Positions 6,918 to 45,304 of a DNA stretch of 64,000 nucleotides are shown here, piece by piece. The notes beneath the pieces are model-generated. The model saw only the letters and a program-made list of their open reading frames with translations, was not told where the DNA came from and searched no databases. The translations under genes were made by a program, and so were the position numbers. Position 1 is the first letter of the stretch. Every line of letters begins with the position of its first letter. This stretch comes from a phage. Location of the stretch: sequence record PX853108.1. The stretch is one strand, 5' to 3'.

Positions 6918-6939
6918 CATCCTTTAGATGCGGAGCATC
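6918..6939 (-). promoter_or_regulatory. N4 virion-RNAP-type hairpin promoter (CATCC-TTTA-GATGC GGA GCATC); predicted +1 at 6922
   Basis: 5-bp stem, GGA loop, -8G/-11G, +1/+2 CC; near-identical layout to recalled N4 P2 CATCC-AAAA-GAAGC GGA GCTTC. Confidence 0.65.
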
Positions 6940-7009
6940 TTTCTTTTAAAGATAGTGCGAGTTAGTTAACTTAAAGTAGATAGTTATCTACTTTTGACTA
7001 TCTATCTAA

Positions 7010-7048: not shown

Positions 7049-7372
7049 TTATTCTTTAGTCAGGATGTCGATGACTTTGGAATATTCTGCGTTATAGATA
7101 CGAGCGTTCTCTGAATCCTTGCAGAAGTCCTCGATACTTTTCTTACGCAGAGTCTCAGTCATAGCTGTTTCCTCTGCCAGTTTATTAACAAAGGTATGCA
7201 TTTCTAATTTAGTACGAATGGCTTGTTTCTCTGCCATCGTACTAACATATGAATTAAGCATACCTACTGCTTTAGTTGCTGTGCTGAATGTATCTGCAAC
7301 AGTAGTAGCAGCTGAGTTAACAGTACCAAGTAAAGTTCCTGCGGTCATACGTACAGTAGCTTGAGTAGTCAT
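7049..7372 (-). CDS. early protein (107 aa), first gene downstream of outermost hairpin promoter
   Basis: ORF in track trimmed to internal ATG at 7372 with RBS GGAGAT; about 115 nt downstream of predicted +1 at 7487. Confidence 0.5.
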   Translation of the reverse strand: MTTQATVRMTAGTLLGTVNSAATTVADTFSTATKAVGMLNSYVSTMAEKQAIRTKLEMHTFVNKLAEETAMTETLRKKSIEDFCKDSENARIYNAEYSKVIDILTKE

Positions 7373-7504: not shown

Positions 7505-7960
7505 TAGACGAACGAAGTTCGTCAAAAATGTTTTATAAAGATGTAGGCGCGTGCGCAAGCCGAAGGCTTGCGTGCGTGCCGAAGATATGCACATAAGCCC
7601 ATGGGCTTGCTTGCAAGCCTAGTGTGTGTAACGTGTAAGGTGGGGTAGGGTAGTGGCTACACGGTCAACATACCGGGGGGGATGGTTGAGTGTAAGGGTG
7701 TAGCCCTAGGTGTAACACTATAGCCATACATAGCTATCACAATTTTGACATGCAAAAATATTATAGGCACTATCTCTATAAGCAGATAACTTTGAGGTAC
7801 TAACCTGAAAGATGGTTGAGGTATCTATCCTCTATTCATCATAGCGTTTGATACTTAAAACCTCATACAGCTTACCATTTACAAGTAATGGTCCTCCCAC
7901 TTCTATGAAAGCCAGACTGTGTACTATCACTGGTTCAGGTAAGCCCTTGACTGTTACATA
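7505..7960. other. non-coding, locally GC-rich, hairpin-dense region; candidate genome terminus / terminal-repeat or origin region
   Basis: No ORF; hairpins GACGAAC-GAA-GTTCGTC (7507-7523), GCAAGCC-GAA-GGCTTGC (7555-7571), AAGCCC-ATG-GGGCTT; G-run ccggggggg; sits just upstream of the outermost early promoter. Confidence 0.3.
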
Positions 7961-7967
7961 CCACATG

Positions 7968-8297
7968 TTAATCCTTATACGCAGTTAAATAGGAGGGAGC
8001 ATACACCAAGTGAGGGGTTTGTAATTCATTCGTAATACCAAAGGTTAGAGAGTACTTATCCGTATTCACATGCCAGGGGGAGTACATGTAAGAGGACCAT
8101 GGTAGTTCCTTTCCTGGTTCAAGAACTTCTACAATAGTTTCCTTATTTAGTAATAAAGCTAATCCTTTAACTTCGTGTAGTGTTTGTTCATCCGGTACTA
8201 GGATAATAGGAGTGAGCCTACCTGGTACAAGGTCTTGTAAGGTTGTATGGGTAGTGGGGTTAGAACTACGAGCATAACCTATCTTAGTAAGTTTCAT
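7968..8297 (-). CDS. paralog family member 1 (109 aa), unknown function
   Basis: Shares core IILVPDEQTLHEVKGLALLL ... VEVLEPGKELPW ... SPWHVNTDKY with six neighbouring ORFs. Confidence 0.55.
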   Translation of the reverse strand: MKLTKIGYARSSNPTTHTTLQDLVPGRLTPIILVPDEQTLHEVKGLALLLNKETIVEVLEPGKELPWSSYMYSPWHVNTDKYSLTFGITNELQTPHLVYAPSYLTAYKD

Positions 8298-8331
8298 TTA
8301 ATATCCTAAGTGCTTGGGTTAGTAGCATATG

Positions 8332-8703
8332 TTAACTTTTTGTGATTACATCCCAATGAGGTGGCATATTAATATCCCAAGGAAGCATCTTTCCAGATTC
8401 AAGTATTCTTACAGACCTGAAGGAGTTACCTTCTTTTACCATACTGGTTCTTACTGTTACTGGTAAGAAGATATGAAAGTAGTCACCTTCTGGTGCAAGG
8501 TAAGTATCCCCTTCATTGAGAATAACTATCTTTGCATTGCTGTTAGTAAGAAGTTTATGCCCCTGTGCAAAGTCTGCTAACTCTCCTGGTTCCATTATTA
8601 GCGTTGGAGTTCCATAGGTCATAATGTGGATGATTGCTTTCTCCGGTTCTGAGGAATAGTGCAGTAAGTCTGTACCATTCATACCTAAGAGCTTAACGTT
8701 CAT
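8332..8703 (-). CDS. paralog family member 2 (123 aa), unknown function
   Basis: Divergent copy: KIVILNEGDTYLAPEGDYFHIFL ... VRILESGKMLPW. Confidence 0.5.
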   Translation of the reverse strand: MNVKLLGMNGTDLLHYSSEPEKAIIHIMTYGTPTLIMEPGELADFAQGHKLLTNSNAKIVILNEGDTYLAPEGDYFHIFLPVTVRTSMVKEGNSFRSVRILESGKMLPWDINMPPHWDVITKS

Positions 8704-8742
8704 GTTTTAGTACCTGTATCTGATAAGGAGATGTGTTTAGTT

Positions 8743-9027
8743 TCATTGCCTTTCCTTGTAGATTGGGGTGTTACCCTCGAAGGATAGGATGTACTTGTCT
8801 GTATTGAGATGCCAAGGACTAAAGCTACCCTGCCAGGACATAGGTGTTCCTGGTTCAAGTAGATGTACTTCTGCCTTCTTACTGTATAAGAAAAGTAATC
8901 CTTGTAATTCATGCAGAGACTGCTCATCTGGAACCAAGATAAGTACATCAGCGTCTAGATTCGCTATATCTTTATGACGGTAGTAGTCATCCTCATGTAC
9001 TGCTGAATAAATTTTACTGATAACCAT
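8743..9027 (-). CDS. paralog family member 3 (94 aa), unknown function
   Basis: LILVPDEQSLHELQGLLFLY ... HLLEPGTPMSW ... SPWHLNTDKY. Confidence 0.55.
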   Translation of the reverse strand: MVISKIYSAVHEDDYYRHKDIANLDADVLILVPDEQSLHELQGLLFLYSKKAEVHLLEPGTPMSWQGSFSPWHLNTDKYILSFEGNTPIYKERQ

Positions 9028-9347
9028 TAGAGGCTCTCGTCGCTAGATAAATATGAGGTAGAAGGATAGAGGGTAATAAGTCTACCTGTTAGGGTAGTAA
9101 CTACCATAGGCTCAGCAGTAGATAGTACGAATACCTGTGCAAACTCAGATATCTCAACTGATGTATCTATCTTAATGAAAGTGATGGGTATGCCTAACAT
9201 TAGACATGTACCTATGAACTCATCAGCCTCTTCATTTGGTTCATATAGGATAGTAGTTCCATCCAGCTCACCATTTAAACAATCCCGTTTAGTTGCTTTA
9301 CTGCGATAGCAACTTGTACTTAGTGCAACTAATGAGTAGAAGTGCAT
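9027..9347 (-). CDS. paralog family member 4 (106 aa), divergent
   Basis: TILYEPNEEADEFIGTCLMLG ... IKIDTSVEISEF; RBS AAGGAAG; stop/start overlap with members 3 and 5. Confidence 0.45.
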   Translation of the reverse strand: MHFYSLVALSTSCYRSKATKRDCLNGELDGTTILYEPNEEADEFIGTCLMLGIPITFIKIDTSVEISEFAQVFVLSTAEPMVVTTLTGRLITLYPSTSYLSSDESL

Positions 9348-9350
9348 AAC

Positions 9351-9620
9351 TTACTTCCTTACATAGTAGTAACGGTATTCACCCTTCTTATAACGACTCT
9401 CCCATTGGTAGTCATCAGATACCATCATGTATGGGATAGGGTCATTGGCGTTATAGTTGGTATAGACAGAAGGAGGGATAATACATACAACCTTACGGTC
9501 ATTACCTGCTAGAAAGAGTTGTCCCCTTACTTCATGGTAGTCCTCTAAGGTAGGAACCAGGATTACTTGATGGGGGTTGCTGTTCATGACTTCTTCTAAA
9601 GTGAAGTCAGTTGTGTACAT
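9351..9620 (-). CDS. paralog family member 5 (89 aa after start trimming)
   Basis: VILVPTLEDYHEVRGQLFLA; start moved to ATG at 9620 with RBS AGGGAG to avoid 110-nt overlap. Confidence 0.45.
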   Translation of the reverse strand: MYTTDFTLEEVMNSNPHQVILVPTLEDYHEVRGQLFLAGNDRKVVCIIPPSVYTNYNANDPIPYMMVSDDYQWESRYKKGEYRYYYVRK

Positions 9621-9630
9621 AGGCTCCCTT

Positions 9631-10029
9631 TCAGCAAAACTGGGGATGGTCATTATGAATTTCATGATGGATTTTCCTTCCTTTAGGAATGGGTCTGAAG
9701 TAAATGGATAGTGTTTTATTAAAGACGTTATGGTCAACAATCATTTCCCAGCCAGGTACTTTATAGAATCTGATTCCTGGAAAGAATGTTTCGAAGTTCG
9801 AGTACTCAGTAAGATCATACACCTTTGGTTCAGTAAGTATCTCAGTGTTAAGTTGCAGGTTGGATAAGAAAAAAGAACCAATAATCTCGTGTGATTCCTC
9901 GCAATCAGGAAAGAATACTGATTGCCTCGGGGATAGCATCTTACTTACTACCTCTGGTTCCTCTAGGTAATATGGTTCTTGCTTGCGTAGTACACCGGTA
10001 ATATCAATATCAAAAGCGTAGATGCTCAT
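9631..10029 (-). CDS. paralog family member 6 (132 aa), divergent
   Basis: VFFPDCEESHEIIGSFFLSN ... TEILTEPKVYDL. Confidence 0.45.
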   Translation of the reverse strand: MSIYAFDIDITGVLRKQEPYYLEEPEVVSKMLSPRQSVFFPDCEESHEIIGSFFLSNLQLNTEILTEPKVYDLTEYSNFETFFPGIRFYKVPGWEMIVDHNVFNKTLSIYFRPIPKGRKIHHEIHNDHPQFC

Positions 10030-10039
10030 AATTGCATTC

Positions 10040-10081
10040 CTCCAGAAAAAGAAATGGGGTAGAGCCTCTCGACTCTACCCC
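10040..10081 (-). terminator. rho-independent terminator (minus strand)
   Basis: 9-bp stem GGGGUAGAG/CUCUACCCC followed by AUUUCUUUUUCU. Confidence 0.5.
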
Positions 10082-10229
10082 TTACCGTTTTCTATCACGG
10101 GTCAGTTCATCACCCTAGATACATGTGTATCGTTAGCCTACTAGGTAGGAAAGGAGCCGGGCAACCCTGACTGTAGAAGTTATTAACTCTTTACGAGTAC
10201 CGCCACTGTCTACTAGGCGGCATGACTAA

Positions 10230-10520
10230 TCACATCGTCACCGTCATCCGAACACTGTCTTTGCTTCGCCTGACGGAGACACTATGAGGTAATTTTGTGA
10301 AGAACACAAGAGAGGAATGACGTTTTTCTAAAGAGTAAGTTTCTCTTGGTTCTAAGATTTTAATGCCGGGTCGATTCTCTAAAAGCATCATCCCAGCTAA
10401 TTCATGATAGGTATCTTCATCGTGAGTAATGATAATATCATTTGAAAGAATACCAGCTTTGGTGTGGTCTAGTTCTTTGTATTCATCTTTAGAGTCGTGG
10501 ACTCTCATATAGATTCTCAA
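10230..10520 (-). CDS. paralog family member 7 (96 aa)
   Basis: IIITHDEDTYHELAGMMLLE ... IKILEPRETY. Confidence 0.5.
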   Translation of the reverse strand: MRIYMRVHDSKDEYKELDHTKAGILSNDIIITHDEDTYHELAGMMLLENRPGIKILEPRETYSLEKRHSSLVFFTKLPHSVSVRRSKDSVRMTVTM

Positions 10521-10691
10521 AGGTTACTCCTTTTGGGAATAGGGTCATCGGAACATTACATACTATTTAGTATCATGAACTTTTTCTATATCATGACTAA
10601 AGTGTAACTGTATGGTATCGTTTCTTCAAGGGGTAACTCATCCCAAGAAAAGAATCTTCTTTAATAGACATAACTTTGTAGCGAGATAAGT

Positions 10692-11381
10692 ATGAGTGAA
10701 CTAACTAAGCAGCAGATTATTAATGCCTTACCTGCTAACTTCAAAAACAGTGTGACCCAGGAGTTGGTAGACACAATCAACAACATAACCCAAGACCAAC
10801 TGGTTGCTGAGTCCTTCCGTGAAAACTTTATCTCCTACTCTGGTGTAATGAAGGAAGGTAAGTTTAAGACACAGGACTACATGAATGCAGTTCAGTATGT
10901 GACTTACAAACACATGGGTTACTCAAATAAGGAAGCCTACTTCAAGACATTCCCTAACCGACAAGCAGAACTTGTTGCACGAGGAACCAGTGAGAAAGAC
11001 ATTAGTGCTTATGTATCCGCTTACCACAGAGGTAAGCTAGTTAACCTCATCATGGAACAAAGTTTGGTTCCAGTGTGGATTGTGAACCAGGACAACTATC
11101 AGAAGGCAATCAACGTTCAGGTTGAACTGATGACTACAGCAGCAAGTGAAAAAGTAAGATGTGATGCAGCTAACTCTATCCTTACTCACTTAGCTAAACC
11201 GAAAGACCAGGTAACGAATATCAATCTGGACTTGAGAGAGAACTCTGGATTAACTGACCTCAAGGCAACACTTGCTGCATTAGCTGAACAGCAAATTAAC
11301 GCAATCAATAGTGGTGTACCTACCAAAGAGGTTGCTGGTTCTAAACTAGTACGTGCAGATGAGGACATTACAGATGTCTGA
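10692..11381 (+). CDS. hypothetical protein upstream of terminase; possible small terminase subunit
   Basis: 229 aa; position immediately 5' of large terminase with ATG/TGA overlap; no diagnostic motif. Confidence 0.3.
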   Translation: MSELTKQQIINALPANFKNSVTQELVDTINNITQDQLVAESFRENFISYSGVMKEGKFKTQDYMNAVQYVTYKHMGYSNKEAYFKTFPNRQAELVARGTSEKDISAYVSAYHRGKLVNLIMEQSLVPVWIVNQDNYQKAINVQVELMTTAASEKVRCDAANSILTHLAKPKDQVTNINLDLRENSGLTDLKATLAALAEQQINAINSGVPTKEVAGSKLVRADEDITDV

Positions 11382-12963
11382 GTTAATTAAACAGGAACTA
11401 GATGAATGGCTAGACCAGGTGGATTACTCCCACCTTAATTCGTCTAACTATGTTCCTAGTCAGTTTGCTCTTACCTTTGCCAACTTTATTAAGTTGGTTA
11501 ATGGTAAAGAGGGTGAATCCAACAAAACACCTCCAGTTCACCTGAAGATGCTGGATAAGATGATTAGTCCTAACCAGTATGTAGTTAACCTGTGCTTCCG
11601 TGGTGCAGGTAAGACTGCTGTGTTTATGGAATACTTTACTTTGTTCCTGGCAGTGTTTGGACACTTACCAAGTCTGGGTAAAGTAGAAGGGATGATTTAC
11701 GTATCTGACTCAATGGATAACGGTGCTAAGTCTGCACGTAAGAACATTGAGTTTCGTTATAAGAATAGTGAGTTCCTACAGCAATGGATACCTGAAGCTA
11801 CCTTTACGGATAACCTATTAGAGTTTCGTAATGTAGAAGGACATCGACTTGGTGTTAAGCTGTTCGGTGCTAAGACAGGTCTTCGTGGTACGAAGATATA
11901 TGGTAAACGCCCAACACTCTGTGTACTGGATGACTTGATTAGTGATGGTGATGCTAACTCCAAGACTAGCATGGAAGCTATTAAGGATACTGTTTATAAA
12001 GGTGTGAACCATGCTCTTGACCCAACCCGTCGTAAAGTAATCTTCAACGGTACTCCCTTTAATAAGGAAGACATTATCATTGAAGCGGTAGAGTCTGGTG
12101 CATGGGATGTCAACGTATGGCCTGTGTGTGAGAAGTTCCCTTGTAGTAGGGAAGAATTTCAGGGTGCATGGGATGACCGTTTCTCTTACGACTATATTAA
12201 AGCCCAATATGACATGGCAGTTAAGACGGGTAAGCTGGCAGGCTTCTATCAGGAACTTATGCTCCGTATTAGCTCTGAAGATGAGAGACTGGTTCAGGAT
12301 AGTGAAATTAGATGGTATAGCAGACAGCAACTATTAAGGATGAAGTCCTGCTACAACTATTACATTACAACTGACTTTGCTACTTCGGAGAAACAGACCA
12401 GTGACTACAGTGTCATATCAGTTTGGGCTTATAGTTCTAATGGAGATTGGTTCTGGGTTGATGGTGTGGCTAATCGTCAGCTTATGGATAAAAACTTTGA
12501 TGATCTGTTCCGTCTGGTTCAAGAATACCAACCACAAAACGTTGGAGTCGAAATCACAGGACAACAGGGTGGATTCATCTCTCTCCTTCAGAAAGAAATG
12601 ATTAACCGTAATGTCTTCTTTAACTTTGCATCCTCCGAGGGTGGTAAGCCTGGCATACGTCCTGTAACCTCTAAGCTGTCACGTTTTAACCTGGTAGTTC
12701 CTTGGTTCAAAGCTGGTAAGATGTACTTCCCAGAAGAGTTGAGAGATTCAACTATCATGGGTCTGTTCATGGGGCAGATTAAACTAGCTACCATTAATGG
12801 AATCAAAGGTAAGGATGACTGTATTGATACTATCTCTATGCTGGGTTATCTCAATCCTTGGAAACCACAAGCAGGTATGACTATGGTGGATAACAAGGGT
12901 GACCCAATGTGGGATGACGAAGAAGAAGATAGTGTTAACCCACTACGTTCATACATTGTGTGA
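11353..12963 (+). CDS. terminase large subunit
   Basis: 536 aa; Walker A-like CFRGAGKT and Walker B-like LCVLDDL; head of structural operon; alternative start at 11374. Confidence 0.7.
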   Translation: MQMRTLQMSELIKQELDEWLDQVDYSHLNSSNYVPSQFALTFANFIKLVNGKEGESNKTPPVHLKMLDKMISPNQYVVNLCFRGAGKTAVFMEYFTLFLAVFGHLPSLGKVEGMIYVSDSMDNGAKSARKNIEFRYKNSEFLQQWIPEATFTDNLLEFRNVEGHRLGVKLFGAKTGLRGTKIYGKRPTLCVLDDLISDGDANSKTSMEAIKDTVYKGVNHALDPTRRKVIFNGTPFNKEDIIIEAVESGAWDVNVWPVCEKFPCSREEFQGAWDDRFSYDYIKAQYDMAVKTGKLAGFYQELMLRISSEDERLVQDSEIRWYSRQQLLRMKSCYNYYITTDFATSEKQTSDYSVISVWAYSSNGDWFWVDGVANRQLMDKNFDDLFRLVQEYQPQNVGVEITGQQGGFISLLQKEMINRNVFFNFASSEGGKPGIRPVTSKLSRFNLVVPWFKAGKMYFPEELRDSTIMGLFMGQIKLATINGIKGKDDCIDTISMLGYLNPWKPQAGMTMVDNKGDPMWDDEEEDSVNPLRSYIV

Positions 12964-44308: not shown

Positions 44309-44565
44309 TAGTAGCTTTAACGCAGCTAACGAGGCTTGTATGAGTGCTAGGATTTGTAACTCCCAGCATATCCCCACCGTTTTAGCTGACGGCAAACAGA
44401 GATTGATAGTCTCAGAGGATACTTTACTCAGGCGAGTATTATAGTCTACTCATACTCACACTACCCTAACGGGTAGTATGTTTGCAATACCTAGAGTGCC
44501 GGACTGTCTCACCGGCATTGTCTTTAGAGTGCAATGCAATCAGGACTATGTTCTCTATTAATGAG

Positions 44566-44638
44566 TACCCACTACTGGATTTGAACCAGTGACCTTCCGA
44601 TTATTAGTCGGTTGCTTTCCCCGTCTAAGCTAAGTGGG
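44566..44638 (-). tRNA. tRNA-like gene, canonical cloverleaf; anticodon reads AAU by hand (Ile-type, unusual A34)
   Basis: Acceptor GCCCACT/AGTGGGT, D-arm GCTT...AAGC, anticodon arm ACCGA-CUAAUAA-UCGGA, T-arm ACTGG-TTCAAAT-CCAGT; folded by hand only. Confidence 0.55.
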
Positions 44639-44643
44639 CATAA

Positions 44644-44719
44644 ATGGTTACCCGGACAGGATTCGAACCTGTGTCCTAGTTGGTTTACTAGTGGGGCTTT
44701 ACCACTAAGCCTACCGGGT
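44644..44719 (-). tRNA. tRNA-like gene with encoded CCA and non-canonical anticodon loop (6 or 8 nt)
   Basis: Acceptor TACCCGG/CCGGGTA, D-arm GGCT...AGCC, T-arm ACAGG-TTCGAAT-CCTGT, then A-CCA; anticodon region CTAGT-AAACCA-ACTAG does not give a 7-nt loop. Confidence 0.45.
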
Positions 44720-45304
44720 ATTAATGAGTGAGTCACGCCAGACTTTAACTGGCTCCTTCTTCGCAATCCTTACATACCCCTACATAATTATTGCGTTAAG
44801 CTTTTTTGTTTAAGTTTAAGTGAAGGCGTTCTTGCTGACTCATAATAGGTTGGGCGTTTGACGAATGACTAGTTCGTTACTACCCGTTTGCCATAAGTAC
44901 CTGGCGACTTTGGTTTGAGGTGGGAGTCCGAGTCCTGTACAGCCTTACCGTTCACACATTGGCAGCGTATCTAGAATAGCACTTCCGGCAACTGGATTTA
45001 ACTGTTACACCTCAAATCTGGTAGGGGCGTCCAGAAGTCTCATCTGGTACTTACGCCGTCGTATGGTTACGACTTACCCCCATAATCTTTCTAATTCAGA
45101 GTAGCACTGCTCCACGTTTGGCCTTTGAACTCCGGGATGGATTAGTGCAATGCTACTTTGAATTAGTTGTCAGGGATTCCACCTGGCTCCATCTGTTTTT
45201 ATAGTCACTCAGATATCGTCTGGACTCTTTACTATGGGACTCACCGGCTACTTAGAGTAACTACGGTAAATATTATTCCACAGCTTACATTGATGTCGCA
45301 TCCC

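Follow-up and report, generated by a model that had tools for sequence, protein, structure and literature searches.

Seven tandem genes at the right end of an N4-like phage genome appear to encode one family of small accessory proteins

The 64,000-nucleotide (nt) stretch of phage DNA analysed here (record PX853108.1; the window) carries seven consecutive minus-strand genes at 7968–10520, lettered A to G by ascending position, and the evidence indicates that all seven products belong to one protein family, with D as the least certain member. We name it the N4 gp70/gp71 family; it has not previously been recognized as a single family. A preliminary description of this DNA had proposed that the seven are paralogues, a proposal that holds: five copies (A, C, E, F and G) are linked directly by sequence profiles, and B and D are joined to them through metagenomic intermediates and predicted structure. 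Taken as a whole, the best explanation, one family of binding proteins that serve host takeover or counter-defence and are expressed by transcriptional read-through, has in our judgement an even chance of being correct.

The seven open reading frames (ORFs) are present where the preliminary description placed them, and the ribosome-binding sites and translational coupling found in the array indicate that they are real genes of an expressed type. G (10230..10520), the proximal stand-alone member, is the orthologue of N4 gp70 and G7C gp70 and encodes 92–96 amino acids (aa), the length varying with the choice of ATG 10508 or TTG 10520 as start codon; a Shine–Dalgarno AAGGAG lies 6 nt ahead of TTG 10520. 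F (9631..10029, 132 aa) is the orthologue of N4 gp71 and G7C gp71, E (9351..9665, 104 aa) that of G7C gp71.1, and D (9027..9347, 106 aa) that of G7C gp71.2; locus, strand and gene order are the same. D is the most divergent member, with 260 homologue clusters. C (8743..9027, 94 aa) is the closest paralogue of A, its start overlapping the D stop (TAATG); B (8332..8703, 123 aa) is divergent, with the core in an ‘EPGELADFxxG’ form; and A (7968..8297, 109 aa) is the last family member. E had been given a start at TTG 9740, which we correct to ATG 9665: AAGGAAGGA lies ahead of this codon, and the PHROG match and all E orthologues begin there, reducing the E–F overlap from 110 nt to 35 nt. Genes from F through to a gp72-like ORF (7832..7966, minus strand) are tightly packed, overlapping or separated by no more than 39 nt, and G is set apart from F by 200 nt. 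The gp72-like ORF (44 aa, 76% nucleotide identity to N4 gp72, PHROG 19797), the last gene before the terminal repeat, was tried as a family member and rejected (family profile E 2.3).

A three-part motif had been read across all seven proteins. Its first part is indeed common to every copy; the complete motif occurs in A and C, the only members with ‘SPWHxNTDKY’. The common core is a strand, a helix and a strand, following the pattern hh[LV][VT][PH][DT]x[ED][ST]x[HF]ExxGxx[LF][LI]xN...hxh[LI]. It begins with a hydrophobic strand ending in [VT][PH][DT] and an acidic or Ser/Thr helix cap, continues with the helix ‘x[HF]ExxGxx[LF][LI]xN’ and closes with a second hydrophobic strand, often carrying ‘LEPG’. 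The C-terminal half of the members is variable and strand-rich.

Pairwise searches recover part of the family. BLASTP aligns A and C at 55% identity over 56 aa (the core) and finds weak links of A or C with G and E, and of E with F. Comparison of alignments built from eight related genomes with hhalign gave 99.8% for A–C, 95% for C–E, 93% for C–G, 92% for A–G and 81% for A–E; F, B and D scored lower. Searching with a profile built on types A, C, E and G then recovered every F-type protein, N4 gp71 included, at E-values of 1e-5 to 7e-4 (F itself 3e-5), against 0.011 for the best unrelated ORF among 613 six-frame ORFs from the window and loci, so the claimed similarity is significant; once included, F matches the family profile at 9e-28. 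We further enriched the profile with the 33 genuine representatives that a complete HMMER scan of 1.84 billion proteins had yielded. This version matched A, C, E, F and G at 1e-22 to 1e-30 and B at 1e-5, reached all B-type proteins at 1e-5 to 7e-3, and placed all eight D-type proteins (0.037–0.82) above every one of 690 unrelated ORFs (best 1.3).

These values bear on the idea that the ORFs are non-genic and owe their common motif to chance or to composition. It could draw on the databases, in that no Pfam or NCBIfam model matches the seven proteins, but it is refuted by the tests run: the ratio of nonsynonymous to synonymous substitution rates (dN/dS) is well below 1 in every orthologue pair, conserved homologues number in the hundreds, profile E-values are 1e-20 and better, and ribosome-binding sites are in place. 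We give it next to no probability.

A narrower alternative confines the paralogues to A, C, E, F and G and treats B and D as unrelated proteins that share a short motif by chance. In its favour, the hhalign comparison of D with the family gives 9.8% only, though in register; the enriched-profile values for D types are the weak ones cited above; the search of 1.84 billion representatives gave no B or D types; and, of the five AlphaFold models of D, the best has a predicted local distance difference test (pLDDT) score of 87 and the other four are poor (43–48). Against it, B matches the family in hhalign at 88% probability (E 3e-6), in register. Two proteins from metagenomic N4-like contigs also stand between the types: L017_1993_2229 is matched by the B profile at 1.7e-9 and by the main profile at 6.6e-12, and L018_2712_3047 by the D profile at 1.5e-6, the B profile at 9.5e-8 and the main profile at 5.9e-6.

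Predicted structures, which cover A and D of the seven, point the same way as the intermediates. The A model (pLDDT 73, predicted template-modelling score 0.67) and the best D model have the same secondary-structure order at nearly the same positions through residue 60. Searching BFVD with either model in Foldseek returns the same set of small uncharacterized N4-like phage proteins, holding E and F types and, at probabilities of 0.96–1.0, each other’s orthologues (A and D) and K4MQ72 of phage IME11, which we verified as B-type. The membership of D thus rests on one confident AlphaFold model and a transitive profile link. Weighing both sides, we regard a family of five plus two unrelated proteins as very unlikely and a single family of seven as the better account.

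In the A and D models the fold runs strand, strand, strand, a 13-residue helix, strand and a strand-rich C-terminal half, and is thus predicted to be α/β rather than a β-barrel. An initial guess of a cupin-like small barrel is abandoned on these models, since cupins are double-stranded β-helix barrels that have no long helix at their centre and often carry a His/Glu metal site. In a set of 50 family sequences only the helix glycine, Gly45, is near-invariant (49/50); His41 (44/50), Glu42 (36/50) and Asp36 (29/50) vary more. With no invariant polar residue, the pattern is structural rather than catalytic, and binding is likelier than catalysis. Variation at His, Glu and Asp likewise led us to reject a catalytic reading of ‘PDE...HE..G’, whether as a PD-(D/E)xK nuclease or an HExxH metalloprotease. 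The members (92–132 aa) are soluble and mildly acidic, with pI 4.3–6.6, net charge −1 to −8 and low hydropathy, and we saw by eye no membrane segment or signal peptide in the sequences. These charges fall short of the extreme negative charge of a DNA mimic.

Database searches place the family in no known group. Searching the PDB by sequence with the family profile, the D profile or B alone gave no solved relative below E 0.08. PHROGs splits the seven genes over six families of unknown function (7213, which holds G; 9160, which holds F; 11661, 12099, 16338 and 12606), and Pfam has entries for N4 Gp1 and Gp2 and none for gp70 or gp71. The possibility that profile searches would assign the copies to a known structural or housekeeping family, raised beforehand as a way for the proposal to fail, was therefore not realized in Pfam, NCBIfam or PHROGs. 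Known anti-defence families (Ocr/ArdA DNA mimics, Acb, Tad and Sequestin sponges) were considered and set aside, there being no named match in Pfam, PHROGs, NCBIfam or a search of 5.8 billion proteins.

Nucleotide matches identify the window as a G7C-like N4-type coliphage (Gamaleyavirus, family Schitoviridae). Over 7800–10700, 59 phage records match at 80–92% nucleotide identity, nearly all of them Escherichia or Shigella Gamaleyavirus, and no sequenced phage record among the 59 covers 80% of the interval. Records in standard N4 orientation have the matching region at the extreme right end on the opposite strand, so the window is a reverse-complemented, circularly permuted assembly. Beside the array, on the plus strand, lie homologues of N4 gp69 (10692–11381, terminase-associated) and gp68 (11353–12963, large terminase). 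G7C, whose 1,160-bp terminal repeats are experimentally annotated, has its left end at about 7712 of the window; its right-end unique sequence maps to 10733–9045 and then jumps to 7797–7626, leaving out 7798–9044 (C, B, A and the gp72-like gene). This mapping puts the seven-gene array just inside the right terminal repeat, and we infer a terminal-repeat boundary for the window phage near 7712.

Putative promoter hairpins of the type used by the N4 virion RNA polymerase (GC-rich, 6–8 bp stem, GAA/GGA loop, plus strand as template) occur at 7554–7572, 7507–7523, 6926–6940 and 2472–2486. The first two form a tandem pair immediately inside the inferred left terminus and upstream of a gp1-like gene (7049–7369). 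A hairpin scan placed all early-type hairpins downstream of the array, with none upstream of it or within it. This agrees with the earlier suggestion that the array sits at the opposite genome end from the early genes: it adjoins the right terminal repeat, and the early promoters at 7507–7572 are downstream. The terminal repeat itself shows a difference from G7C, in which genes gp1.1 and gp1.2 lie inside the repeat (L009 457–1216); both are missing from the window (7061–6948), so the repeat of the window phage is probably shorter or different, and the assembly cannot place its inner boundary.

Between the window phage and its close relatives, the number of family members at this locus runs from two to seven. 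Arrays read G F in N4 (two), G F E D in G7C (four), G F E D B′ A in EC1-UPM and pSb-1 (six), G F E D B′ [HExxH gene] B in IME11 (six family copies), G F E D C [HExxH gene] B in 24-32N and PGN829.1, and G F E D C B A in the window phage (seven). The proposed comparison of copy number across related genomes thus reveals variation among close relatives. G (32% identity to N4 gp70, E 1e-21) and F (27% identity to N4 gp71, E 2e-8) are the conserved proximal pair, and the distal E, D, C, B and A come and go: C is missing in G7C, pSb-1 and EC1-UPM, and a full-length A occurs in only 17 of the 40 phage records that match it. The locus is fixed: the family sits on the early/middle-gene strand, opposite to the late genes, and is bounded by gp69 and the terminal repeat.

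Farther afield, a Klebsiella Kaypoctavirus has at least four family members at the same locus, Achromobacter phage Axy12 (Rothmandenesvirinae) has five consecutive members beside an annotated 433-bp terminal repeat, and two metagenomic contigs also carry same-locus arrays. We found the family only in Enquatrovirinae and Rothmandenesvirinae, with the gp69 marker in 465 phage records, and detected no members at the right ends of an Erwinia phage and Pseudomonas Litunavirus. The search of 1.84 billion representatives yielded 33 real clusters at 50% identity, all of 54–136 aa; two further hits, P0034 (a 981-aa repeat protein with IBR and WW matches) and P0035 (5,584 aa), look spurious and were rejected. 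In the collection of 5.8 billion proteins, 319 homologues at 90% clustering are all unnamed or ‘hypothetical’ and without a Pfam domain; among the matches listed, no contig exceeds phage size except one of 168 kb.

Gain and loss of copies may be traced to a short DNA element. A 23-nt box, CCTCCTATTTAACTGC(G/T)TATAAG, encoding P-S-Y-L-T-A-Y-K, ends the last gene of arrays; by sequence comparison it is present in A of the window (7996–7974), in G7C gp71.2 and in B of PGN829.1, with positions of about 1680–1705 in locus L010 and 1456–1480 in locus L003. A degenerate second box, CCTCAAAGTTATCTGCTTATAG, lies at 7776..7797 on the minus strand, directly before conserved repeat-proximal sequence, and the D gene of the window ends with a related CCTCATATTTATCT. 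Deletion and insertion junctions between arrays fall at the box, so the genomes differ as expected from recombination there, and the box is likely to be a recombination site for cassette gain and loss. The duplications that made the copies are old, because no DNA-level repeats are shared between them, which also rules out recent duplication. Recent recombination was considered for the A-like C terminus of B and rejected, the DNA similarity lying within the range of codon-shuffled controls.

Some material at the locus lies outside the family. The HExxH-like gene noted above (motif HELNHF, 104–108 aa, no Pfam match) sits inside the array of several relatives (L001 1006–1320, L003 1784–2098, L005 3117–3431, L020 2525–2839 and L018 3719–4045) and is missing from the window; phage phi G17 has a further, unrelated 120-aa gene within its array. 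For Klebsiella phage vB_Kpn_K60PH164C1 (L012, OY978778.1) the annotation table does not fit the sequence: ‘portal’, ‘major head’ and similar labels fall over gp69 and the small-gene array, and nearly all coding sequences carry a partial or pseudogene flag. Its annotation coordinates may be offset or on the wrong strand, and ORFs were used in place of the annotation.

Selection on the array is relaxed relative to its neighbours. Comparing the window phage with six relatives, dN/dS is 0.12–0.49 for the array genes (0.13–0.27 for G) and 0.00–0.03 for gp68 and gp69. The array genes are functional and under purifying selection, evolving at the protein level about tenfold faster than the adjacent terminase genes, in keeping with the rapidly evolving multigene family of an N4-like genome that the preliminary description had envisaged. 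dS is also often higher in the array than in gp68 and gp69, which indicates allele exchange.

Non-coding sequence around G suggests how the genes could be expressed. A putative sigma-70-type promoter of G (10601..10629, minus strand) has TTGAAG and TACACT at a spacing of 17 nt; hexamers and spacing are kept in N4 (TTGCAG, 17 nt, TAGACT), with a different spacer sequence, and a consensus promoter scan does not list this TTGAAG/TACACT pair among its sites. The divergent gp69–G intergenic region (10521–10691) also holds a block conserved as far as N4, GA(A/G)GATTCTTTTCTTGGG.T.AG..ACCCCTTG(A/C)AGAAAC, an imperfect hairpin that overlaps the sigma-70-like −35/−10 pair directed at G.

The 200 nt between G and F (10030..10229, minus strand) form a predicted structured non-coding element that is nearly invariant in Gamaleyavirus and more conserved than the flanking genes, with blocks and helices also conserved in Moo19, N4 and a Kaypoctavirus. 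RNAalifold across four genera gives 50 pairs, 16 of them with compensatory changes; 93% of cells are paired, and the observed value was reached by 0 of 500 shuffles, with slid controls at 1–7. The element ends in an intrinsic terminator (stem 10081–10056, T-tract 10055–10046, minus strand), directly before the F ribosome-binding site. The element has no match in Rfam and could be an attenuator, a leader or a small RNA from a 3′ untranslated region. Rfam and tRNA scans of the array region returned nothing relevant; elsewhere in the window, at 44565–44720, ARAGORN reports a tRNA-Ile (anticodon AAT) beside a second tRNA-like gene with an abnormal two-base anticodon.

Packed tightly behind the terminator, F through A have no room for promoters of their own and would need transcripts that cross the element. 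In the expression model that follows, G would be made alone from the sigma-70-like promoter and stopped at the 10081–10046 terminator, and F through A with the gp72-like gene would be transcribed past the structured leader and terminator. The read-through transcripts would probably come from phage RNA polymerase II in mid-infection, as reported for the right-end cluster of LUZ7, where mid-infection transcripts on the corresponding strand cover the whole genome, including 29 right-end ORFans (PMC9163698). We therefore infer expression in the middle or late phase.

Turning to function, the lack of an invariant polar residue, of any enzyme or DNA-binding signature and of a strict need for the distal copies makes it most likely that the proteins bind other proteins, and the members are probably non-enzymatic, non-virion and partly dispensable accessory proteins. 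A virion or terminase component was considered and rejected, given the restriction of the family to two subfamilies against the wide occurrence of gp69; array genes gp1–gp6 are also missing from the virion mass-spectrometry table of Moo19 (PMC11654681). Host interaction or counter-defence would best account for a constant scaffold joined to a diverse C-terminal half, for rapid evolution and for changes in copy number, with each paralogue perhaps tuned to a different host target or competing element. The support is circumstantial, and we hold this function tentatively, at clearly less than even probability.

Several observations pull away from it. The G-type copy is kept in Escherichia, Klebsiella and Achromobacter phages and F in Escherichia and Klebsiella phages, a breadth that a phage-intrinsic role or a very conserved host target would explain better. 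Because the right end is the last part of the genome to enter the cell, the proteins would come too late for defences that strike at DNA entry, and an immediate-early role is disfavoured. The one anti-defence hotspot that experiments have defined in N4-like phages maps to another locus, flanked by the primase-polymerase and virion RNA polymerase genes (bioRxiv 10.64898/2026.06.04.730250), and the promoter and read-through model leans on conservation and on a distantly related phage.

The first of these observations feeds the main rival, a phage-intrinsic role in replication, in a late-transcription switch or in packaging and end processing, with the extra copies subfunctionalized. Besides the conserved position of G from coliphages to Achromobacter phages and of F from coliphages to Klebsiella phages, it gains from the adjacency of the array to gp68, gp69 and the terminal repeat, from the reach of the gp69–G intergenic block to N4, and from the replication-related role that the LUZ7 authors suggested for their mid-expressed right-end cluster (PMC9163698). 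Yet the distal copies are dispensable, G7C doing without C, B and A and N4 without E through A; no family member was detected in N4-like phages of Erwinia and Pseudomonas, although these share the replication and packaging genes; the dN/dS of the array exceeds that of neighbouring core genes roughly tenfold; and the proteins are acidic, without a DNA-binding signature. An intrinsic role is accordingly a serious contender that we nevertheless consider unlikely.

Superinfection exclusion or inter-phage competition, in which mid-to-late paralogues block related or unrelated phages or satellites, would agree with the timing proposed above and with an accessory, fast-evolving family of variable copy number; unrelated accessory-type genes, such as the 104-aa HExxH protein, also occur in the array region of relatives. 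Against this, the family members are soluble, cytoplasmic proteins in which no membrane segment or signal peptide was seen by eye, and many exclusion proteins operate at the envelope. Exclusion seems to us quite unlikely, and host interaction or counter-defence stays the preferred function.

Schitoviridae, the N4-like phages, turn up commonly in sewage and in the gut and find use in phage therapy, yet every gene at their right end carries a hypothetical annotation. In dozens of genomes, as many as seven unexplained genes apiece would now become one testable family with no solved fold relative. That phages can do without the distal copies is apparent from natural deletion variants such as G7C, the 3′ box offers a concrete route for growth and shrinkage of the array, and the conserved leader RNA is a candidate for cis-regulation in phages whose control of middle and late transcription is little understood. 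Should the proteins bind host targets, the paralogues would offer a ready series of specificity variants on a common scaffold.

The nearest known proteins are N4 gp70 and gp71 and G7C gp70, gp71, gp71.1 and gp71.2, all annotated as hypothetical: N4 has two and G7C four, against seven here. We found no source that treats gp70 and gp71 as paralogues, and no functional or paralogy statement in the literature on N4 gp70, gp71 or the G7C gp71.x proteins; N4-like phages go unmentioned in the accessory-gene screen of Silas et al.

Pseudomonas phage LUZ7, itself N4-like, offers a parallel in layout. Its 29 ORFans, gp87–gp115, follow a gp69-like gene from which they diverge and run on the early/middle strand to the genome end; like the array, they are tandem, uniformly small genes. 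They form a tandem paralogous family of their own (L016 8699–14346), with 21 of the 29 linked by BLASTP in 26 pairs at E < 1e-3. That family differs in being about 65 aa long and helical-looking from sequence, with a ‘KY.KE’ motif (..Y.F..L...KY.KE), and as candidate members of ours the LUZ7 ORFans were rejected, the gp70/71 profile finding no relation. On these comparisons the resemblance is one of locus and evolutionary mode, not homology. One could go further and picture the gp69-to-terminal-repeat locus as a ‘paralogue nursery’, in which box-driven cassettes for a binding protein with no solved structural relative, gated by RNA structure and terminator, would build a strain-specific anti-defence arsenal, with LUZ7 as a convergent case; we consider this picture speculative and rather improbable.

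The anti-defence hotspot of N4-like phages, with Acb4-Sequestin, Bes1, Bes2, Tad2, Tad3 and redundancy among adjacent genes (bioRxiv 10.64898/2026.06.04.730250), resembles the array as a variable accessory cluster of small proteins in the same phage family. It differs in locus and in content, its proteins being mutually unrelated, whereas the array appears to hold a single paralogous family.

A broader likeness is to the terminal gene families of large linear DNA viruses. The MGF110/360/505 genes of African swine fever virus and the terminal host-range families of poxviruses have established functions in host range or immune evasion. As in the array, these are tandem diverged paralogues near genome ends, with recombinational copy-number variation and dispensable copies. 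They differ in having no sequence or structural relationship to the array, for which a host-range function is only hypothesized. With tandem diverged paralogues at a genome end, copy-number variation and relaxed but purifying selection, the array shows the features that mark such families, and by this analogy we classify it as a terminal accessory multigene family, built from an undescribed family of proteins.

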